The notes: a model not told the origin generated them from the letters alone. A stretch of 64,000 nt of DNA from Thermoanaerobaculia bacterium (GCA_041567315.1 JBFGCA010000008.1:2990-66989); one strand, 5' to 3'. Shown: positions 52,793 to 64,000, counted from the stretch's first letter. Numbers and translations are program-made.

Positions 52793-55700
52793 ATGAGACG
52801 GACCCTGCACGGCTTCGCCTTTTGTGCTCTGGCCGCCGCCACGCTGGCCGCGGCGCCCTCGGAGGAGGCGCTCGAGCTCCGCAACCTGGGGCTCGCCGAG
52901 CTCGAGAACGAACAGCCCGGCAACGCCGAGGAGCTCTTCCGCCGGCTGGTGGCGATGGTGCCGGACGACCCGCTGCCGGCCGCCAACCTGGCGATCGCCG
53001 CGCTCCGCCAGCAGAAGTTCGAGGAGGCGAGCGAGTGGGTCGGCCGGGCGCTGGCCAAGAGCCCGGGCGACCCACGGCTGCTGGCCATCGAGGCCGAGAT
53101 CCACCTGTGGAGCGGTCAGCCGCAGCAGGCGCTCGCCGTCTACCGGCAGGCGGCCGCCGGTGCCCCGCGGGACCCCGAGATCCAGTACGCGCTGCTCCGC
53201 CAGGCCGCCAACTTCCCCGGCGACGAGGCGACGGTGGCGGCCGGCGAGGCGCTGGGGCGACTCATGAAGCTGCGGCCCGACAACCTGGTGGTGATGCTCC
53301 AGGTCGGCCAGCAGGCGGTCGCTGCCGGCGACCGGGCGGCGGCCACCGCCGCCTACCTGCGGATCCGCGAGCTGCTGTGGCAGGCCCCGGGGCCGGCCGA
53401 GCGGCTGCTCGAGGAGATCCTCGGCAAGCTGGAGGCCGGCGAGCCGGCGGCGGCGCGGGTGCCGGCGCAGCGCCTGGAGAACGTCCTCAAGGTGACGCCG
53501 ATGTTCCGCGAGACCCAGCGCGAGCTGGCGACCGGCATCCAGGGGGTGCCGCTGGTGCGCTTCCGCGACGAGCCGGAGCCGGTGGTCTTCGGCGAGCCTC
53601 TGGAGGTGCGCTTCCGTGGTGCGCGGCTGGCCGAGGGGCCGGCGGCGGCGCCGGTGGCGGCCGACTTCGACGGCGACCGCCGAACGGACCTCGCCTGGCT
53701 GGCGGGCGGGCAGCTCGTCGTGCGGCTGGCGACCGCCGGCGGGGGGCCGCCGGCGCGGCTGCCCGCGGCCGGGATCGCCGGGCTGCTGGCCGCCGACCTC
53801 GACAACGACGGCAAGCTCGACCTCGTCGGCTGGGGCACCGAGCGGTTCGAGCTGTGGAAGGGAGACGGGGCGGGCGGCTTCACCGCTGCCTCCGACTCCG
53901 GGCTCGCCGGCGGCGCCGCGGCGGCGGCGGTGATCGACTTCGACATCGAGGGCGATCTCGACCTGGCGGCGGTCGGCGGCAAGCGCGGGCTCGAGCTCTA
54001 CCGCAACGCGCTCGCCGGTCCGCTCGAGGCGGTGGGCGAGCGCACCCTGCCGCGCCCGGCGCCCGAGGACGGCACCGCGCTCATCGTCTCCGACCTCGAC
54101 CGCGACGGCGACCTCGACCTGCTGGTCGCGCACCGCGGCGGCCTGGCCTGGCTCGACAACCTGCGCCAGGGCACCTTCGTCGACCGCACCCACGAGTCGG
54201 GGCTGGCGGCGGCCGGCGCGGCCAGGGCGATGGCCAGCGCCGACCTCGACAACGACGGGCTGCCCGACCTGGTGACCGCCGGCCGCGGCGTCAAGCTCTA
54301 CCGCAACCTGGGCGGGCGCTTCGGCCCCTGGGCGCTGGGCGACAAGCTCCGGACCAGCGCCGAGTTCAGCTCGGTCGAGACCTTCGACGCCGACAACGAT
54401 GGCCGGCTGGACCTGGCGGTCGGCGGGCCGGGCGGGCTGGCGGTGCTGGCGCGGCGCCAGGGCCGTTTCGAGTTCCTGCCGCTGGAGGAGGCGCCCTCCC
54501 GGGTGGCGGCGGTCCTCGCCGCCGACCTCGACCAGGACTGCGACCTCGACCTGGTGACCGCCGGCCCCGAGGGCGTGCACCGCCTCGAAAACCTCGGCGG
54601 CGACGCCAACCGCTGTCTCCAGGTCAGGCTCCAGGGTCTCGACAAGGGCAGCAGCAAGAACAACTTCTTCGGGCTCGGCGCCACCCTCGAGCTGCGCGCC
54701 GGCCGCGCCTACCAGTTCCGCGAGGCGACCGGCGACGTCACCCACTTCGGGATCGGCCGCTTCGCCGAGGTCGACCTGCTGAGGGTGGTGTGGACCAACG
54801 GCGTGCCCCAGAACCGGCTCGCTCCCGGGGCCGAGCCGCGGATCGTCGAGGAGCAGCTCCTCAAGGGGAGCTGCCCGTTCCTTTACGCCTGGGACGGCGA
54901 GCGGGTGCGGTTCGTGACCGACCTGCTGTGGGGCGCGCCGGCCGGGCTGCCGGTGGCGCCCGGGGTGTGGGCCGGCGCCGACCCCTCGGAGCTGGTGCGG
55001 GTCGACGGCGCGGCGCCGCGCGGCGGGGTCTGGGACCTGCGGATCACCGAGGAGCTGTGGGAGGCGGCGTACTTCGACCTGGTGCGGCTGTGGGTGGTCG
55101 ACCACCCGGAGGACGTCGAGGTCGCCAGCAGCCTCAAGGTGGTGCCGGGTGCGCAGGTGCCCGACCGGGTGCACGGCACCCGCGGGCTGCGGCCGGTGGC
55201 GGCGGCCGTCGACGCCGCCGGGAACGACGCCACCGCCCGGGTCGCCGCCCGCGACGAGATCTACGCCGACGGCTGGCGGGCGAGCGCCTACCAGGGGGTT
55301 GCGGCCAAGCCCTGGAGCTTCACCTTCGACCTCGGCGAGGCGCCCGCCGGACCGGTGCGGCTCCACCTCGACGGCTGGATCTTCCCCGCCGACGCCAGCC
55401 TCAACCTGGCGGTGGCCCAACGCCAGGGCGGGCCGGCTCCCCTGCCGCCGCGCCTCGAGGTCGAGACCGCCGCCGGCTGGCGCACCCTCCTGCCGTCCAT
55501 GGGCTTCCCGGCCGGCAAGACCAAGACCATGGTGGTCGACACCCCGCCGCTGCCCGCCGGCGCCCGGCGGCTGCGGATCGTCTCCGGGCAGTGGCTCTCC
55601 TGGGACCGCGTCGCCTGGTCGGAGCGGCCTGCCGACGCCGAGCCCGTGGTCCGCACCCGGCTCGCCCCGGCGCGGGCCGACCTCGCCTACCGCGGCTTCT

Positions 55701-56227
55701 CGGCGCCGGTCCGTGAGAGCCCCAACGGCCCACACCTCTTCGACTACGCGCGGATAACTAGTGAGTCCCCCTGGCTCCCCTTCCCCGGCCACTACACCCG
55801 CTACGGCGACGTCCGCGAGCTGCTCGCGACGGCCGACGACCGCTCGGTGATCCTCGGCCCCGGCGACGAACTGCGGCTCGCCTTCGACGGCGCCGGCCTC
55901 GAGCCGCCGCCCCCCGGCTGGCGCCGCACGGTCTTCCTCGAAAGCCACGGCTGGGACAAGGACGCCGACCGCAACACCTGGGAGGCCAAACAGCTCGAGC
56001 CGCTCCCCTTCCGGGCGATGAGCGGCTACCCCTACGGCCCCGGCGAGAGCTACCCCGACACCCCGCTCCACCGCCGCTACCGGGAGGAGTGGCTGACCCG
56101 GGTGGTGACCGGCACCGGTTCGATCCGGCCCACCGCCGCAGCGGCGGACACGGATGGAGCCGCTGCGAGCGAGCCCGCGGACGGGTCGGTCCGTGCCGGC
56201 CCGGCCGGGGCCACCACCCGGCGCTGA
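52793..56227 (+). CDS. Secreted TPR + FG-GAP + ASPIC/UnbV domain protein
   Basis: Signal peptide, TPR-like helices, repeated DxDxDGxxDL, HFGIG...VVWTNG, then KGSCPFLYAWDG and a C-terminal domain. Confidence 0.85.
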   Translation: MRRTLHGFAFCALAAATLAAAPSEEALELRNLGLAELENEQPGNAEELFRRLVAMVPDDPLPAANLAIAALRQQKFEEASEWVGRALAKSPGDPRLLAIEAEIHLWSGQPQQALAVYRQAAAGAPRDPEIQYALLRQAANFPGDEATVAAGEALGRLMKLRPDNLVVMLQVGQQAVAAGDRAAATAAYLRIRELLWQAPGPAERLLEEILGKLEAGEPAAARVPAQRLENVLKVTPMFRETQRELATGIQGVPLVRFRDEPEPVVFGEPLEVRFRGARLAEGPAAAPVAADFDGDRRTDLAWLAGGQLVVRLATAGGGPPARLPAAGIAGLLAADLDNDGKLDLVGWGTERFELWKGDGAGGFTAASDSGLAGGAAAAAVIDFDIEGDLDLAAVGGKRGLELYRNALAGPLEAVGERTLPRPAPEDGTALIVSDLDRDGDLDLLVAHRGGLAWLDNLRQGTFVDRTHESGLAAAGAARAMASADLDNDGLPDLVTAGRGVKLYRNLGGRFGPWALGDKLRTSAEFSSVETFDADNDGRLDLAVGGPGGLAVLARRQGRFEFLPLEEAPSRVAAVLAADLDQDCDLDLVTAGPEGVHRLENLGGDANRCLQVRLQGLDKGSSKNNFFGLGATLELRAGRAYQFREATGDVTHFGIGRFAEVDLLRVVWTNGVPQNRLAPGAEPRIVEEQLLKGSCPFLYAWDGERVRFVTDLLWGAPAGLPVAPGVWAGADPSELVRVDGAAPRGGVWDLRITEELWEAAYFDLVRLWVVDHPEDVEVASSLKVVPGAQVPDRVHGTRGLRPVAAAVDAAGNDATARVAARDEIYADGWRASAYQGVAAKPWSFTFDLGEAPAGPVRLHLDGWIFPADASLNLAVAQRQGGPAPLPPRLEVETAAGWRTLLPSMGFPAGKTKTMVVDTPPLPAGARRLRIVSGQWLSWDRVAWSERPADAEPVVRTRLAPARADLAYRGFSAPVRESPNGPHLFDYARITSESPWLPFPGHYTRYGDVRELLATADDRSVILGPGDELRLAFDGAGLEPPPPGWRRTVFLESHGWDKDADRNTWEAKQLEPLPFRAMSGYPYGPGESYPDTPLHRRYREEWLTRVVTGTGSIRPTAAAADTDGAAASEPADGSVRAGPAGATTRR

Positions 56228-57152: not shown

Positions 57153-57545
57153 TCAGCAGGCGCCCGGCGTGCCGCCGGTGCCGGTCTCGAGGATCTCGAG
57201 GCGGTCGGGAGCGTTGGGCACCATGCACAGGAACTCGAAGGGGCCCTCGACCACCTCGTACGAGTGCGGGGCGCCGGCCGGGATGTAGAGCACGTCGTCG
57301 GGCCCCACCTCGTGGACCCGCTCGCCGATGGTCACCCGGGCGCGGCCGCGGAGCACGTACTGCTCGTGCTCGACGGCGTTGGTGTGCCGCGGCATGCCGC
57401 CGCCCTCGCCCATCCGGAAGCGCCGCATCGCGAAGTTCGGCGCCCCGTCGTCGGGGCCCAGCAGCACCTGGGTCTCGGTGGCGCGCCCCGCGGGCACCCC
57501 TCGGGCGGGAACCTCGTCCGCGCGTTTGACCACCGGGCGACTCAT
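57153..57545 (-). CDS. Cupin domain protein
   Basis: PNFAMRRF, PRHTNAVEHEQYVLRG, IPAGAPHSY. Confidence 0.88.
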   Translation of the reverse strand: MSRPVVKRADEVPARGVPAGRATETQVLLGPDDGAPNFAMRRFRMGEGGGMPRHTNAVEHEQYVLRGRARVTIGERVHEVGPDDVLYIPAGAPHSYEVVEGPFEFLCMVPNAPDRLEILETGTGGTPGAC

Positions 57546-57914
57546 TGAAGCCCAGCATATGTCAAGAGTGGAAGCTGCCGAGGCGGTGCACGAGTGGCCG
57601 CTCTTCCGACAAGCCAGGGAGGAGAGCTGGGTAAGAAGGGGCTCGCGGGCCGTCGCGTCGTCTGTGGCATGGCCGTGCACGCCGGGCTGGCGGCCACCGG
57701 ACGTCTCGCTCCACTTGAACGCCGGAGATTGTCCGGTCGGCTCAGCGCCGTCGGTACCTGCGGTCCTCGGCTTAGCCGCTGCTTCGAGCGCATTGCCCGC
57801 GGGAATGGGTATCCTGTCACCGTGTTGCAGCGCGAGCCGTGATGGTTTCGTGAGAAATCGGAGCTACGCTGAAGTCTCGCAGTTGATCTCACCTGGATTC
57901 GAGGAGGCGGTACG

Positions 57915-59090
57915 GTGATCTCGAAAAGCTTCGGAAAAGCGCTGGGCGTAGTCCTCCTGGGGGGCTTTGTCGCGGTCGCGCTGGCCGGGCTGGGACCGGC
58001 GCCGGCGGAGGCGGCCGACGGGGCGGTGTACGTGATGACCAACGCGCGGTCGGACAACCGGATCGTGATCTACGACCGCGCCGCGAACGGGATGCTGACC
58101 ATGCGCGGCTCGGTGTCGACCGGCGGCCGGGGGAGCGGCGGGACCATCGATCCGCTGGCGTCGCAGGGGTCGCTGGTGCTGAGCGAGGACCAGCAGTGGC
58201 TCTACGCGGTCAACGCCGGCAGCGGCCAGATCTCGGTCCTCGAGGTCACCGGCGACGGGCTGGAGCTGGTGCAGGTCCTCCGCAGCCGCGGCACCTTCCC
58301 GGTCAGCCTCAGCGCGGTGGGCAACCGGCTCTACGTCCTCAACGCCATGGGCCGCACCCACGTCCAGGGGTTCCGAATCCGGGAGGACGGGACCCTCAAG
58401 CGGCTCGTCCGCTCGCGGCGCCTCGTGACCAGCGAGGTCACCGCCGACGGGAGGCCGCTGCACCCGGCCCAGGTCCAGATCAGCCCGCTGGGCGACTGGC
58501 TGGTGGTCGACGACGTGGCCACCAGCGAGATCCACGTCTGGGCACTCGACGGCCGCGGGCGGCCGAGCGTCGAGGCGACCGTCAATCCGTCGGCCGGCGG
58601 CGGCCCCTTCGGCTTCACCTTCTCGCGCAAGAAGTACCTGGTGGTCGGCGAGCTGTTCGGCGTCATGCCGCCCGGCACCGCCGGCGCCGGGGCGGTCTCC
58701 TCGTACAGCATCGCCGACGACGGCACGCTCGAGCCGATCAGCGCCTCGGTCCAGAACCGCCAGTCGGGGGTCTGCTGGATGGTCAGCGACGGCGGCCGCT
58801 TCGTCTACACCACCAACACCAACAGCGGCACCATGACCGCCTACCGGGTGCGCAAGAACGGCCGCCTCAACCAGCTGGCCGGCAACGGCATCTCCTTCCG
58901 CTTCCCGCGCCCGCCCAACGCCCTGCCCATCGACGTCGCCTCGGCCGACGGCTTCATCTACACCCTCAACACCGGCACCGGCACGGTCGGCATCTTCTCC
59001 CGCAGCCGCGGCTCCGGCCAGCTCACCTTCCTCGGCGAAGCCGGCGGCCTCCCGCCCCTCGCCGGGCTGCAGGGCATCGCGGCGCGGTAG
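57915..59090 (+). CDS. Secreted lactonase-family seven-bladed beta-propeller protein
   Basis: Signal peptide; AVYVMTN, TGGRG, LYAVNAGS, GPFGFTF, VYTTNTNSG. Confidence 0.82.
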   Translation: MISKSFGKALGVVLLGGFVAVALAGLGPAPAEAADGAVYVMTNARSDNRIVIYDRAANGMLTMRGSVSTGGRGSGGTIDPLASQGSLVLSEDQQWLYAVNAGSGQISVLEVTGDGLELVQVLRSRGTFPVSLSAVGNRLYVLNAMGRTHVQGFRIREDGTLKRLVRSRRLVTSEVTADGRPLHPAQVQISPLGDWLVVDDVATSEIHVWALDGRGRPSVEATVNPSAGGGPFGFTFSRKKYLVVGELFGVMPPGTAGAGAVSSYSIADDGTLEPISASVQNRQSGVCWMVSDGGRFVYTTNTNSGTMTAYRVRKNGRLNQLAGNGISFRFPRPPNALPIDVASADGFIYTLNTGTGTVGIFSRSRGSGQLTFLGEAGGLPPLAGLQGIAAR

Positions 59091-59192
59091 TTCGTCGGAG
59101 CCGGCGGGTGGGGGCCACGGGTCTGCTACAGTGGCCAAAGGCCAGGTGTTGCAGACTGCTCAGGTGAGACCCGCTTGCGGCCGGCGCGGGTG

Positions 59193-59628
59193 GATGGTGG
59201 CGCTGGTGATTGCGGGCTGCGGGCTGGCCTGTGGTGAAACCGCTGAGCCGGAATCGCGCGAGGAGCCGCCCGGCGAGGAGACAGGAGCCGGAGTGACCGA
59301 CGACACCGTCAACGTGGCATTCATCCTCAAGGGGGAGGCGCGGTCGGCGGGGGCCAAGCAGGAGGTCGAGTCGATCGCCCGCGGGCTGGGGATGGAGCCC
59401 ACCCGCGCCGGGGCGGCGACGATGACGCTCAAGGTTTCCAGGCAGCGGTTCGAGGAGTTGTTCGGCGGCCGGCCGCAGGAGGTGCCGGCGCTGCCGGCCA
59501 GCGCGCGCGACGCCGGGTCCCCGGCGGGCCACCGTTACGAGGAGGAGATCCCGGTGCCCGACGCGCTCTTGCGGTACGTCGAGTCGATCTCGGTCGAGCC
59601 CCCCGCCCGCCGGCTGGACGAGCCCTGA
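59193..59628 (+). CDS. Stand-alone protease-prodomain-like protein, possible lipoprotein
   Basis: LGMEPTRAGAATMTLKVSRQRFEELFG resembles the prodomain of the downstream subtilase. Start is ATG 59193 (LAC lipobox) or GTG 59293. Confidence 0.62.
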
Positions 59629-59685
59629 GGTCCGACCATGACTCTCGACTCCCCGGAACCTTGAACCCGTAGAGGAGGTGCCAAG

Positions 59686-61227
59686 ATGCCGGCCAGGAAG
59701 AAGAAGGCGCGAAGCAGACGGCGGCCCGCCGCGCGGAAGAGCGTCCGCAAGAAGAGCGCGGCCGCCGCCAAGCCGCCGTCGACGCTGTCGATCGCGGTCA
59801 CCCTGCCGAGCCCCAAGCACGGCGTCGGGCCGACCAAGTTCGCCGCCCGGATGACCGCCTCGCTGGCCGAGGAGTTCAAGCCGGATCCCACCGTGCGCAG
59901 CAGCGCGCTCGCCGAGCTCCAGCGGCTGGGCTTCAAGGTCACCTCGCAGGGGCGGATGACGATCTCGGTGCGGGGCAGCCGCTCGCTGTTCGAGCGCACC
60001 TTCGGCACCAAGCTGAGCGCCTTCGTGCAACGCCGCGAGATGGCGGACGACGAGGCGTTCTTCTTCCCCGCCAAGGGCGCGCCGTGGAAGCCGCACTCGG
60101 GGCTGGCGGCGGTGATCGACGACGCCTACATCCAGTGGCCGCACATCTACATGACCGACCTGTTCAAGAGCACCGAGCCGTCGCCGATCCCGCCGCGGGT
60201 CGACTACCACCACCTGCGGGTGGCCGGCGACCTCAATTGGCTGCTCAACGTCGACAAGGTCCACCGCCAGGGCACCACCGGCCGCGGGGTGCGGGTGGCG
60301 ATGATCGACAGCGGCTTCGCCCACAAGAGCCATCCCCACTTCGGGCGCCGCGGCTACCGCACCACCACCGTGCTCGCCCCGGGCGCGACCGACGTCGACA
60401 AGGACGGCAGCAGCCACGGGACCGGCGAGTCGGCCAACCTGCTGGCGGTCGCCCCCGACGTCGAGTTCATCGGCGTCAAGCTCGACAACGAGCGCGGCGG
60501 CAAGGGCGCCAGCGTCCACGAGGGGTTCCTGGAGGCGATCCAGCACAACCCGCACGTGATCTCGGTCAGCATCGGGTTCGACATGTGCCCGAGCGACCTG
60601 TCGGGCCGGCGCACCAGCAACCAGCACCTGACCGAGCTGCCCAACAGCCTCAAGGCGCTGGAGGCCGAGATCCAGGCCGCGGTCGCCGACGGCACGGTGG
60701 TGGTCTTCTCGGCCGGCAACGGGCACGTCGCCTTCCCCGGCATGATGCCCGACGTGATCTCGGCCGGCGGCGCCTTCGTCGACGACAAGGGCGCGCTCAA
60801 GGCCTCGGACTACGCCAGCGGCTTCGTCAGCAAGATCTACGCGGGGCGGGTGGTGCCCGACTTCTGCGGGCTGGTGGGGATGCAGCCCCACGCCGACTAC
60901 ATCATGCTGCCGGTGCAGGCCAAGAGCCGCCAGGACGGCCGCGGGCACGACAAGACCGCCGACGACGACGGCTGGGGGGTGTTCAGCGGCACCTCGGCGG
61001 CGGCGCCGCAGATCGCCGGGATCTGCGCCCTGCTGCTACAGAAGAGCCCCGGCCTGTCGCCGGCCGACGTCAAGAGCGTGCTCAGCCGCACCGCGGTCGA
61101 CGTCACCACCGGCAACGCCAACCCCCTGAGCAACGAGGACAAGGGTGGAGAAAAGGCGAAGGTCGGCCCCGACGCGGCGACCGGCACGGGCCTGATCGAC
61201 GCCTTCGAGGCCTGGAAGCTGGTCTAG
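59686..61227 (+). CDS. S8 subtilisin-family serine protease
   Basis: VAMIDSG (Asp), HGT (His), FSAGN, FSGTSAAAPQIAG (Ser); RBS AGGAGG; no obvious signal peptide. Confidence 0.92.
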   Translation: MPARKKKARSRRRPAARKSVRKKSAAAAKPPSTLSIAVTLPSPKHGVGPTKFAARMTASLAEEFKPDPTVRSSALAELQRLGFKVTSQGRMTISVRGSRSLFERTFGTKLSAFVQRREMADDEAFFFPAKGAPWKPHSGLAAVIDDAYIQWPHIYMTDLFKSTEPSPIPPRVDYHHLRVAGDLNWLLNVDKVHRQGTTGRGVRVAMIDSGFAHKSHPHFGRRGYRTTTVLAPGATDVDKDGSSHGTGESANLLAVAPDVEFIGVKLDNERGGKGASVHEGFLEAIQHNPHVISVSIGFDMCPSDLSGRRTSNQHLTELPNSLKALEAEIQAAVADGTVVVFSAGNGHVAFPGMMPDVISAGGAFVDDKGALKASDYASGFVSKIYAGRVVPDFCGLVGMQPHADYIMLPVQAKSRQDGRGHDKTADDDGWGVFSGTSAAAPQIAGICALLLQKSPGLSPADVKSVLSRTAVDVTTGNANPLSNEDKGGEKAKVGPDAATGTGLIDAFEAWKLV

Positions 61228-61259
61228 CAGCTAGCCGCCCGCGAACCTGTCGCGACGCC

Positions 61260-62798
61260 CTACTGCTCGACCAGCGTCACCTCGCCGACCACCGGCTGCG
61301 CCTCCGAGGCCGGAGTCCCGACGGGGGCGATGGTCAGGCTCGGCGAGCCGCCCAGCCGGCCGTCGGCCTCGAGCTGCTTGGCGAGGTCGGTGACGTCGAA
61401 GCTGTAGTAGGCGTCGTGCGACATGTCGTCGCCGTGGGCGCCGAAGCCGAAGAAGTTGAGGGTGCCCACCAGGTGCTCGCCGCCCGCCGCCGGGTTGGTC
61501 CCGTCCGGCAGCCCGAGGTAGACGTGGTAGAGGACGCCCGGCTGGGCGTCGGTGGCGAGTCCCCGGGCCACCAGGTAGAGCCGCTTGTCCTCGAGGGCGC
61601 GGACCTGGTCGCCGAGCGGCGGCGCCGGCTGCTCGTCGAGCTCCGCAGGCGGTGGGGCGAGGGTCGCCCGCACGGCGCCGGCGGTCAGCGAGATCGGCTG
61701 CGCACGGGCCGCGGTGCGCGGCTGCACGACGACCGGCACGTCGTCCATCGGGGCGGGCGCCGGCGGGCACGGCGGCACCGGCTCGAGCCGGTCGTAGGTG
61801 TAGCCCAACGGCGCGATCGACGTGAAGTCGGCGGTCTTGCCGACCACCCGGTTGCCGTCGCGGTCGGCGAACACGAACTCCTGGTCGAGCCAGGCCGCGG
61901 TGCTGGGGTTGACCCGGCCGGCGGCGTTCCAGCTCGCCCACAGCCGGTCGATGTTGCAGTGGTGCATCCAGAAGATCGGATCGCCGGCCGCCCAGGGGAC
62001 CGAGCCCATGTTCTGACTGTCGCCCGTCAGCACGTGGATGTTGCCGTGGAGCCCGAAGTCGAGACGCCGGTTGAACCCCGGGATGACGCCCTGCTGGCTG
62101 TAGCCGCACTCCCCCAGCGCCGAGGTGCTGAGCGGATTGCCCGGCTCGCCCTGGTCGATCGCCTGTCCGGCGTTGACCCCCGAGTTGCGCTTGCCCACGA
62201 AGAGCGAGCCGAAGGTGGGGTCGCCGTCCTGGCGAAACTCGGGAGGAATGACGCCGTGGAGCGCCGGATCGGCGACCGAGTAGTCCCAGTAGGGCAGCGT
62301 GAACTCGTCGTTGCCGCTGACCTGGCGGATTATCTGCTCGAAGAAGAAGACGTACATCCGGTGCCAGGGCAGGAAGTCGTCCTCCGGCGGACCGAAGTGG
62401 GCGCGGCAGGTGTTCCACATGTCGTTGGCGAGGTCGCGGTCCGGGCTCGCCGTCGGGTAGATGCGGGCGATCTCGCCCGCCTTGGTGCGGTCGTTGCGCA
62501 CCGCGTGGGTGTACCACTGGAAGACCCAGCCCAGCGGGTCGCCCTCGGCGATCGCGGTCTTCATCTGGTTGACCGCCTGGGCGTAGATCTCGAGCATCGC
62601 CTGGCCCTCGGGGCTGCGGGTGTCGTGGCGGACGAGCGCGCCGGGTGAGGGACCGGTGCCGGTCGGCCCGGTGGGGCCTTCGCCCTCGACCCCGTTCGAC
62701 CCGTTGCCGCCTCCGCCCCCGTTGCAGCCCGGGAGCCAGAGTGAGAGGGGAATGGCGGCGGTACCGCCGAGGAATGCACGGCGGGTGAGCTTCGACAT
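61260..62798 (-). CDS. Tat-exported tyrosinase/polyphenol oxidase with C-terminal shield domain
   Basis: TRRAFL plus LPGC; CuA YTH, CRAH, FLPWHR; LPYWDY; CuB HGNIH, DPIFWMHHCNIDRLW; LGYTYD. Confidence 0.93.
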   Translation of the reverse strand: MSKLTRRAFLGGTAAIPLSLWLPGCNGGGGGNGSNGVEGEGPTGPTGTGPSPGALVRHDTRSPEGQAMLEIYAQAVNQMKTAIAEGDPLGWVFQWYTHAVRNDRTKAGEIARIYPTASPDRDLANDMWNTCRAHFGPPEDDFLPWHRMYVFFFEQIIRQVSGNDEFTLPYWDYSVADPALHGVIPPEFRQDGDPTFGSLFVGKRNSGVNAGQAIDQGEPGNPLSTSALGECGYSQQGVIPGFNRRLDFGLHGNIHVLTGDSQNMGSVPWAAGDPIFWMHHCNIDRLWASWNAAGRVNPSTAAWLDQEFVFADRDGNRVVGKTADFTSIAPLGYTYDRLEPVPPCPPAPAPMDDVPVVVQPRTAARAQPISLTAGAVRATLAPPPAELDEQPAPPLGDQVRALEDKRLYLVARGLATDAQPGVLYHVYLGLPDGTNPAAGGEHLVGTLNFFGFGAHGDDMSHDAYYSFDVTDLAKQLEADGRLGGSPSLTIAPVGTPASEAQPVVGEVTLVEQ

Positions 62799-62922
62799 CT
62801 CGGGGCTCCTTTCCCGGCCGGGTCTGCCCGCGGCCGTCGGCCGGCGCGACCTCTAGAACTGCTCGGCCGATCCCAAGCCGATCGACCGGCGCGCCAGGCG
62901 GCTGTTGAACTAAGCTGCCCGC

Positions 62923-62951
62923 AGACTAGACGAGGCGGGAGAGGCTGTCAA
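62923..62951 (-). promoter_or_regulatory. sigma70-type promoter for the tyrosinase
   Basis: Minus strand TTGACA-17 nt-TAGTCT. Confidence 0.6.
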
Positions 62952-63095
62952 CGGCCCGGTTCGACGCGAGCGCGGCGATGCCGGGGGCACGGGCGTCGAC
63001 GCCACGCGGTTCCTGTCCACTACCCAGCGGGGAGTTCGCGAGCGATGCTTTGGTGGGCTCGCCGATCGGGCCCGGCGGCAGCCTTGCCCGGGCGG

Positions 63096-63665
63096 CTACT
63101 GAACGACCAGCTCGACGCGGCCGATGACCGGGCGGGCGCCCTCCGTCGGCGAGCCGGTGGCGCGGATCGTGAGCTCGATGGCCTCCCCGATCAGACCGCG
63201 CTCACCGAGCGAGCGTACCGCCCTCGAAACCTCGAAGCTCTGCCAGTCGGCGGCCGGGCCGGGCGGCCGGGTGCCGCCGTCGACGGGGGTGGCGCCAAAG
63301 AAGTTGAGGCTGCCGACGTGCCGCGGGTCGTCGGTGGCCGGCTCGGCGCCGGCGGGCAGGCCGAGGTAGAGGTGAAAGAGCACTCCTGGCGGAGCGCTGG
63401 CGGAGAGGCCGCGCAGGACCAGGTAGAGCCGCCGATCCGGACCCAGCGCCTCGAGTTCGGCGGCGAGCGGACGGTCGCCGCTGGGTGCCAGCCGGACCCG
63501 CGACGGCAGCTCGGACAGCTCGATGGGGCCGGCGGCGACGGCGATCATCCCGTCATCTTCGGAGGCGGTGGCCACGGTGGCGCCCGGACCGGCACAGGCC
63601 AAGAAAGCCGGAGCGAGGGCGGCGACGGCAGTGAGCAGCAACCCTGGGATCCACCTCGCCTTCAT
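63096..63665 (-). CDS. Lipoprotein consisting only of a tyrosinase C-terminal-like domain
   Basis: ATG 63665, lipobox FLAC; RLYLVLRGLSASAPPGVLFHLYLGLP...HVGSLNFFG...PVIGRVELVVQ matches the tyrosinase C-terminus. Confidence 0.85.
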   Translation of the reverse strand: MKARWIPGLLLTAVAALAPAFLACAGPGATVATASEDDGMIAVAAGPIELSELPSRVRLAPSGDRPLAAELEALGPDRRLYLVLRGLSASAPPGVLFHLYLGLPAGAEPATDDPRHVGSLNFFGATPVDGGTRPPGPAADWQSFEVSRAVRSLGERGLIGEAIELTIRATGSPTEGARPVIGRVELVVQ

Positions 63666-64000
63666 CGCTGGCGCTCTGGGAAGGGGCCGGCCGGAACCGG
63701 CGCTATCCTCAGCAACCAGCCCGCCCCGGCGGAAAATTCCGCTCCGGCCTTCCGGACGGCCGGCCGCCCAAGGGCGCCGCTCGGGCTCGCCGCCCGCAAG
63801 GGTGTCTGCCAGCGCCGCACCTCCAGCGGACCGCTCGTGCATCGATGCCTTAGGCTGAGCGGGTGGACTGGCCGGGCTCGTTCCAGCGACTGGCCGAAGA
63901 GCAGATCGAGCTGGCCGCCGCGGCGCCCCGACCCTGGACGCCGCCGGCCCAGCCCTACGCGATCGGTGGCTGTTTCGTCTGTTTTCCGCGCGGCAAGCCG

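Follow-up and report, generated by a model that had tools for sequence, protein, structure and literature searches.

Does a subtilase whose gene lies tail to tail with the gene of a latent tyrosinase serve to switch that tyrosinase on? The question is raised by a locus at 59.1-63.7 kb of a 64,000-nucleotide stretch of DNA from a Thermoanaerobaculia bacterium (GCA_041567315.1 JBFGCA010000008.1:2990-66989), which we call the window. Open reading frame (ORF) calling gives four ORFs in this region, arranged as two convergent pairs: on the + strand a small protein gene followed by the gene of a family S8 subtilase, and on the - strand the gene of a free-standing lid protein followed by that of the tyrosinase. 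A previous sequence-only reading of the window had described the same two pairs, and all four ORFs are present as it described them; the start that it gave for the small protein, 59193, is one base out of frame, and 59194 is correct. We consider the locus to be best explained as a system in which a latent (pro-)tyrosinase is controlled at two levels and the S8 subtilase is the likeliest activator, and we put the probability of this reading at roughly 45%. The four genes are as follows.

59167..59628 (start GTG 59167) or 59194-59628 (start ATG 59194), + strand: predicted small lipoprotein, by profile comparison a free paralogue of the N-terminal prodomain-like domain of the S8 subtilase
59686-61227, + strand: S8 subtilase of 513 amino acids (aa), zymogen-like (PF00082, E 2.6e-25)
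61260-62798, - strand: predicted latent tyrosinase of 512 aa (PF00264, E 5.4e-31, and C-terminal PF25271, that is DUF7868, E 6.8e-9)
63096-63665, - strand: free-standing LID (DUF7868-only) protein of 189 aa, predicted lipoprotein (PF25271, E 9.9e-7)

The small protein gene and the S8 gene are separated by 57 bases, which include the sequence GGAGG, and the stop codons of the two convergent enzyme genes are 32 bases apart. The adjacency of the S8 and tyrosinase genes is real, because two contigs from two other studies, X5 (60210-61370) and X6 (60730-61529), span the junction 61227-61260 without differences; a chimeric contig at this point is thereby ruled out. Judged by eye, the N-terminus is of the lipoprotein type in all four proteins except the S8 subtilase.

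Tyrosinase and free lid

The tyrosinase consists of the following parts, given in residues and in window coordinates.

Residues 1-54: Tat (twin-arginine translocation) signal, lipobox and Gly-rich tether
Residues 55-345 (62636-61764): type-3 copper core
Residues 349-359 (61754-61722): exposed linker
Residues 363-512 (61712-61263): LID (DUF7868) with the placeholder Phe450

The alignment of this family comprises 28 homologues (47-58% identity) out of the 120 listed. Six histidines (His98, 134, 146, 251, 255 and 279) are invariant across the 28 sequences and were divided into the CuA and CuB triads by reading; together with the PF00264 match, they identify the protein, as judged from its sequence, as a type-3 copper tyrosinase. 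The aligned homologues have an RR Tat-type motif near the N-terminus, and most of them contain DUF7868. In the window protein the N-terminus, TRRAFL...LPGC, appears by eye to be a Tat motif followed by a lipobox.

The profile of the family matches HcTyr1 of known structure (PDB 8B74) over both the core and the LID (E 3.5e-54), and Phe450 is aligned with Phe397, the placeholder residue of 8B74. The AlphaFold model of the tyrosinase has a predicted local distance difference test (pLDDT) value of 82.4, and confidence falls below 50 only in residues 1-51, 349-359 and 456-458. Its best whole-chain fold match is also 8B74 (E 3.2e-20, TMt 0.78, about 24% identity), followed by the latent polyphenol oxidases (PPOs) of apple, tomato and Coreopsis. 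By these alignments and the model, DUF7868 is the LID of latent bacterial tyrosinases, and the window enzyme belongs to the lid-bearing type, in which a C-terminal lid with a hydrophobic placeholder covers the active site, and is predicted to be latent. In the clade of the window enzyme, Phe occupies the placeholder position of the cis lid in 71 of 74 full-length tyrosinases. The segment 349-359 is the internal low-confidence segment of the model that connects the core and the LID, and would be the obvious place for a cut.

The free-standing lid is related to the C-terminus of the neighbouring tyrosinase, with 42% identity over 144 residues (BLAST, E 9e-25). DUF7868 was the only family matched in the Pfam scan of this protein, the MelC1 family being absent. 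The protein has its own signal and Cys, as judged by eye, and retains the placeholder motif NFFG (Phe122, Phe123).

To describe the neighbourhood of the tyrosinase, the 80 closest metagenome loci (L099-L178) were collected. A free-lid gene adjoins the tyrosinase gene in 61 of them, and in 57 of the 66 loci with an upstream flank of at least 700 bp; it is mostly located directly upstream on the same strand. The printed N-termini of these free lids look by eye like signals or lipoprotein-type sequences. In addition, an aromatic residue is found at the placeholder position in 56 of the 61 free lids (Tyr in 35 and Phe in 21, the window copy having Phe). A profile built from 28 free lids matches 2069 representative clusters at E<=1e-3; among the best 150 matches, 145 are 115-371 aa long and five are of tyrosinase length. 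The free lid and the tyrosinase are therefore a conserved pair and not a local oddity. Note that Tyr at this position (35/61) recalls the oxidisable Tyr98 of the Streptomyces caddie protein.

Subtilase and its free prodomain-like paralogue

The S8 subtilase is divided into three parts.

Residues 1-32 (59686-59781): K/R-rich disordered tail, no signal peptide
Residues 33-150 (59782-60135): prodomain-like domain
Residues 199-477 (60280-61116): catalytic domain with Asp208, His244, Asn345 and Ser437

Across 25 of the 120 listed homologues, Asp208, His244, Asn345 and Ser437 are invariant, so that by sequence the protein has the PF00082 domain, the Asp-His-Ser triad and the oxyanion Asn of family S8. 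The subfamily is tight, with 55-75% identity across many phyla. In the model (pLDDT 73.8, predicted template modelling score 0.82), residues 33-150 form a beta-alpha-beta-beta-alpha-beta domain, and in the fold comparison the whole chain is matched best by intact pro-kumamolisin (1T1E, E 3.7e-16) and by the TPP1 precursor (3EDY). The model therefore points to a prodomain-like N-terminal domain in a zymogen-type arrangement, in agreement with the prodomain view taken in the sequence-only reading. Searches with Pro-kuma_activ (PF09286) gave hits in 12 of the 25 S8 homologues (best E 2.9e-4) and in 6 of 24 small proteins (best E 0.01), all of them below the curated cut-off.

The lack of a clear export signal on the protease had also been pointed out before, and we see by eye the same K/R-rich N-terminus without a hydrophobic stretch. 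The possibility that this N-terminus is an unusual Tat signal was rejected, since a hydrophobic h-region is absent (by eye). In every member of the subfamily the tail is rich in K, R, S and T and has no hydrophobic stretch; it is between 0 and about 80 residues long and is modelled as disordered.

The small protein consists of a lipobox (IAGC), an acidic Pro/Gly linker and a core of about 105 aa. Starting at the in-frame GTG at 59167 would add a basic n-region ahead of the lipobox, as judged by eye. The Pfam scan assigned no family to this protein, and its BLAST match to the S8 subtilase is weak (E 0.001 over 29 aa). When the small-protein and S8 families are compared by hhalign, the match has a probability of 97.6% (E 3.6e-12, 94 columns) and pairs residues 53-144 of the small protein with residues 69-161 of the S8. 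The small-protein profile also matches the S8 N-terminus encoded in the window's own genome (E 3.5e-7). By this profile evidence, the small protein is a true paralogue of the S8 N-terminal domain. The statement of the sequence-only reading that each enzyme is accompanied by a free copy of its own domain thus stands for both pairs.

A separate small protein gene adjoins the S8 gene in 64 of 80 S8 loci, and in 52 of these it is located directly upstream on the same strand. Most of the small proteins have no signal; those that have one are the window copy and the copies in L023, L035, L041 and L055. In a more distant S8 group (about 42% identical; L089-L093, L097-L098), a relative of the small protein is encoded about 2 kb downstream of the S8 gene, after a conserved gene of about 651 aa.

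Association of proteases with lid-bearing tyrosinases

The sequence-only reading had connected the protease with the tyrosinase, a connection that would have failed if the two pairs never occurred together elsewhere. In fact, a DUF7868 tyrosinase gene together with a PpoB2 gene (PF09948, E 2e-24 to 8e-18) touches the small-protein/S8 pair in 6 of the 80 S8 loci, three times co-directionally and three times divergently. In a whole-genome search, DUF7868 was present in 8 of 79 genomes with an S8 pair, and six of these eight are the adjacent cases. DUF7868 was found in 6 of 301 genomes of one class, and PPO genes are reported to be absent from 92% of bacterial reference genomes (PMC11803259). In 36 genomes of the same family as the window's genome, the S8 subtilase was not found, and the tyrosinase query gave distant matches in only two (33-46% identity over parts). 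This distribution suggests that the S8 and tyrosinase modules are accessory genes placed together.

From the side of the tyrosinase, a protease-like gene is located next to the free-lid/tyrosinase pair in 37 of the 80 loci of the window's tyrosinase clade. These neighbours belong to the following unrelated families.

Second S8 type: 8 of 80 tyrosinase loci
NAL1/trypsin-like protein: 13 of 80 tyrosinase loci (Trypsin_2, best E 2.6e-4; Atlas scores 0.97-0.99 to serine-protease clusters)
HExxHxxxxxH protein of about 725 aa, protease-like: 15 of 80 tyrosinase loci
M23 peptidase: 1 of 80 tyrosinase loci

A quick tree was calculated from the last 470 residues of 77 of the 80 tyrosinases (three rows shorter than 430 aa were excluded), the window enzyme and four outgroups. 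In this tree, each type of flanking protease follows its own tyrosinase clade.

Two of these families have features of their own. The HExxHxxxxxH proteins (for example, L112:10023-12200 on the - strand, and 14 further loci) have a metzincin-like motif, no Pfam family and no sequence hit in PDB, and may represent an undescribed peptidase family; the gene is convergent with the tyrosinase pair in one clade and co-directional in another. In nine loci (L130-L136, L138, L144), the gene order downstream of the tyrosinase gene is the NAL1/trypsin-like gene and then a gene for an Nramp metal transporter (PF01566, E 5.7e-90), as in L130 (2739-3770 and 4118-5416), an arrangement that may indicate a link to metal supply.

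Several observations weigh against the S8 subtilase as activator. The orthologous S8 pair is located beside none of the 80 closest tyrosinase loci (0/80), and DUF7868 is absent from 71 of the 79 S8-pair genomes, so that the S8 must have other work; in two of the eight genomes that do carry DUF7868, the tyrosinase is not beside the pair. The 20 ORFs scanned at five other loci with a DUF7868 tyrosinase, from one class, include no S8 pair, no PpoB2 and no dedicated endoprotease; an S11 DD-carboxypeptidase and a DLH/S9-like hydrolase are all that is found nearby. About 11 loci of the window's clade have long flanks and no recognised protease. Moreover, the 37 protease-flanked loci are not independent and correspond to about six lineages, and the HExxH family is called a protease mainly by its motif, with weak Pfam and Atlas leads. 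The S8 and the three other types of flanking protease lack signal peptides as judged by eye, whereas the tyrosinase and the free lid are exported; likewise, the small protein of the window is a predicted lipoprotein whereas its S8 is not exported, a mismatch that is unexplained. Finally, HcTyr1 is described as slowly shedding its lid without a protease (PMC11609597).

A first alternative is that two independent two-gene modules have become neighbours by chance, for example through insertion of both into one variable region. The S8 would then form a self-contained protease-inhibitor pair with its free prodomain and have general substrates, while the free lid and the tyrosinase would function without it, the tyrosinase losing its lid by self-processing, as HcTyr1 does in that report, or through housekeeping proteases. 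The 71 genomes without DUF7868 and the lack of S8 pairs at the closest tyrosinase loci speak for it. Besides the tyrosinase and PpoB2, no neighbour of the S8 pair that was followed up recurs beyond related genomes, and the S8 and tyrosinase pairs cannot form one transcript because the genes converge. Against independence stand the finding that six of the eight genomes with both modules keep them touching, in two gene orders, the recurrence of different protease families beside the same tyrosinase clade, and the abutment of the pairs in the window, given their scarcity in the 36 same-family genomes. We regard chance adjacency as unlikely, while taking it more seriously than the alternatives considered below. 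The link drawn in the sequence-only reading thus survives in part: its support is in the six adjacent genomes and the protease neighbours of the tyrosinase clade, and it does not extend to the S8 pair as a regular companion of such tyrosinases.

Modelled capping of the copper site by the free lid

Structure prediction of the complex, one of the checks proposed in the sequence-only reading, was carried out for the tyrosinase core (residues 55-345) and the free lid (residues 30-189) in three runs with three controls. The complex score was 0.92 in all three runs and 0.01 in the best of the three controls. In calibration, the mark set for this score was reached by 116 of 157 solved complexes and by 2 of 215 mismatched pairs. 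The runs share at least 95% of their contacts, and the pLDDT of the partner is at least 85. In the modelled cap over the copper site, the NFFG motif of the lid (residues 121-124) is placed against residues 249-257 and 133-139 of the tyrosinase, around His134, His251 and His255. Because structures of cis lids on their cores have already been solved, the high score may reflect the likeness to these structures rather than binding by this particular copy. In the model, then, the free lid may be able to cap the copper site in trans.

As an alternative, the free DUF7868 protein might not be a cap and instead be a helper in copper delivery or folding, or a module that binds a surface or carbohydrate and so positions the enzyme at its substrate. 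Caddie proteins are reported to deliver copper besides plugging the active site, and the fold of such C-terminal extensions to resemble carbohydrate-binding domains (PMC10526336). In addition, no match to a PpoB2-type copper chaperone (PF09948) was found in the window's own genome, which is 93.9% complete, although the search also matched nothing in the control genomes; by the Pfam scan, none of the four genes of the module encodes PpoB2. On the other hand, 56 of the 61 free lids retain an aromatic residue at the placeholder position, and the modelled interface is the active-site face. The roles of helper and cap are also not mutually exclusive, and a function without capping seems to us improbable.

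Proposed mechanism and site of action

The following mechanism is proposed for the latent tyrosinase system. The tyrosinase would be exported in the folded state via Tat and tethered as a lipoprotein, with its cis LID plugging the dicopper site by means of Phe450, as the family, the fold and the aligned placeholder indicate. The free LID, exported separately, would dock in trans on the same face of the core in the manner of a caddie protein, a role for which the pairing is conserved and the binding is modelled; it would either cap the core after the loss of the cis lid or hand the cap over. For the small protein, inhibition of the S8 in trans or help in its folding is the most likely role, by comparison with prodomain-like inhibitors. 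The S8 would cut the exposed linker 349-359 or destroy the lids, and the tyrosinase would thereby be turned on, as gene neighbourhood suggests. The two enzymes could meet before Tat export, by co-export or after cell damage.

On the basis of gene neighbourhood and the one in-silico complex, we think that neighbouring proteases and lid-bearing tyrosinases in general are probably tied in function. For this locus in particular, we would rate such a tie at slightly better than an even chance, and direct cleavage of the lid or linker by this S8 at somewhat below even.

A more specific form of the proposed mechanism would have two locks. The first lock would be the cis lid with its non-oxidisable Phe plug, removed by a dedicated neighbouring protease, a role that would have been filled repeatedly by unrelated enzymes (the S8 with its free prodomain, the second S8 type, and the NAL1-like, metzincin-like and M23 proteins). 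The second lock would be the exported trans lid, usually with a Tyr plug, which would remove itself as a caddie protein does. Since the proteases have no export signal and the tyrosinase is outside the cytoplasm, activation would be set off when the cell is damaged or lyses, and the system would be a bacterial counterpart of wound-triggered phenoloxidase activation. We regard the whole as rather improbable, slightly more so than a free lid that does not cap.

The last alternative is that the S8 acts inside the cell, either as a maturation endopeptidase that nicks the lid once copper is in place but ahead of Tat export, much as the large subunits of [NiFe]-hydrogenases are processed at the C-terminus, or as a safeguard that destroys unexported tyrosinase; the exported free lid would then serve as the cap beyond the cytoplasm. 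Proteins exported via Tat are already folded, the free lids carry their own signals, and the S8 and the three other flanking protease types are, by eye, without signal peptides. In the six PpoB2-type loci, moreover, no signal is present on the tyrosinase, on the small protein or on the S8, so that they would share the cytoplasm. We nevertheless consider intracellular action the least likely of the explanations, because an active cytoplasmic tyrosinase would be harmful, which is the reason usually given for the lid (PMC11803259), because the small protein of the window is exported and its S8 is not, and because nothing direct of any kind speaks for it.

Sequence context and neighbouring genes

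The G+C content is about 72% across the 59.1-63.7 kb stretch. A scan of 58900-64000 found no promoter-like sites and three terminator-like sites (1.7 expected), none of which is between the convergent genes. In the search against PADLOC models, the S8 matched only the generic 'subtilase' model (E 4.8e-12), the other three proteins matched no anti-phage defence model, and no known system was recognised. The genes around the module are as follows.

52793-56227, + strand: protein of 1144 aa with N-terminal TPR and six FG-GAP/VCBS-type repeats (PF13517, E 2.5e-40), unrelated to the module
57153-57680, - strand: cupin-domain protein, on the 5' side of the small protein gene
57915-59090, + strand: signal-bearing lactonase-type seven-bladed propeller, just 5' of the small protein gene
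63863 to about 64555, + strand: endonuclease V gene (PF04493, E 1.6e-29), the right boundary of the module

The contig ends at window coordinate 64667, 667 bases past the window. The lactonase-like gene, the cupin gene and an ORF for a membrane protein of 328 aa have no counterparts in the 160 related loci and are not counted as parts of the module.

Significance

The latent lid-bearing type of tyrosinase is already known. As far as the literature searched is concerned, three elements are new: a free lid with conserved pairing, a prodomain paralogue encoded on its own, and the recurrence of proteases as neighbours. In this search, which covered literature other than subscription journals and supplements, no paper containing 'DUF7868' was found, and the combination of bacterial tyrosinase, lid domain and caddie led only to the HcTyr1 paper.

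Latent bacterial tyrosinases are studied as biocatalysts and in relation to carbon turnover in soil and wetlands. The natural removal of the lid is described as 'likely proteolytic' for vsTyr (PMC10526336) and as 'self-processing' for HcTyr1 (PMC11609597). The present locus and its relatives name candidates for activators that can be cloned: four or five families of neighbouring proteases, together with the free-lid family and the free prodomain paralogue of the S8. If the proposed links hold, recombinant tyrosinases could be switched on in a controlled way, caddie-like capping in trans would have a second example, here derived from the enzyme's own lid, and there would be a testable model for how a quinone-producing enzyme is kept harmless until needed.

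Comparison with known systems

In the insect prophenoloxidase cascade, and likewise in plant and fungal PPOs, a latent phenoloxidase is turned on by limited proteolysis, and the protease itself is controlled. The sequence-only reading had proposed a cascade of this kind for the window. The logic is indeed alike, but there is no homology between the proteases, and the locus shows neither an evident cascade nor a recognition step; the resemblance to the insect cascade and to protease-activated PPOs is thus one of analogy, not homology.

The S8 subtilase resembles the zymogens pro-kumamolisin and pro-subtilisin in that a prodomain is followed by a catalytic domain. It differs from kumamolisin in that its catalytic domain is of family S8, not S53, and its subfamily differs from both zymogens in having a K/R-rich tail and no signal peptide. 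For a free-standing prodomain paralogue that inhibits its subtilase there is reported precedent (PMC6993865). The propeptide-like protein of Plasmodium SUB1 and the inhibitors of MEROPS type I9, such as POIA1, are free and propeptide-like, and are comparable to the small protein.

The six S8-pair loci with a tyrosinase and PpoB2 resemble the ppoB operon of Marinomonas mediterranea, which encodes PpoB1 and the membrane copper chaperone PpoB2; PpoB1 is cited as being activated by SDS (sodium dodecyl sulfate), that is, as latent (PMC2855505). The window tyrosinase differs from the six enzymes of this type, to which it is only about 26% identical, in being exported, whereas they are without signals.

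The pair of free lid and tyrosinase recalls MelC1 and MelC2 of Streptomyces, in which a small helper gene is also located upstream of the tyrosinase gene. The MelC1 caddie is reported to reach in trans into the active site with an aromatic residue, Tyr98 or Tyr92 (PMC10526336), and Tyr is also the residue at the equivalent position in most free lids. By sequence the free lid and MelC1 are unrelated, so that the likeness would be functional only; in the window, unlike in the MelC system, the Tat signal is on the tyrosinase, which has a cis lid as well.

The closest known systems are HcTyr1 of Hahella (PDB 8B74) and vsTyr of Verrucomicrobium spinosum (PDB 8BBQ, core only). As far as these enzymes are described in the text consulted, neither is given a separate lid gene or a cognate protease, and the window tyrosinase differs from 8B74 in being only about 24% identical and a predicted lipoprotein. 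HcTyr1 is reported to have a C-terminal LID with the placeholder Phe397, the loss of which brings about 10-fold activation (PMC11609597). vsTyr is described as a Tat-exported pre-pro-enzyme with the gatekeeper Phe453, the core having an activity of 213 U/mg versus 0.67 U/mg for the full-length protein; in the laboratory trypsin was used to open it, and cleavage in nature is called only 'likely' (PMC10526336). With both enzymes the window tyrosinase shares the type-3 copper core and the beta-sandwich lid with a Phe placeholder, and with vsTyr also the Tat signal.

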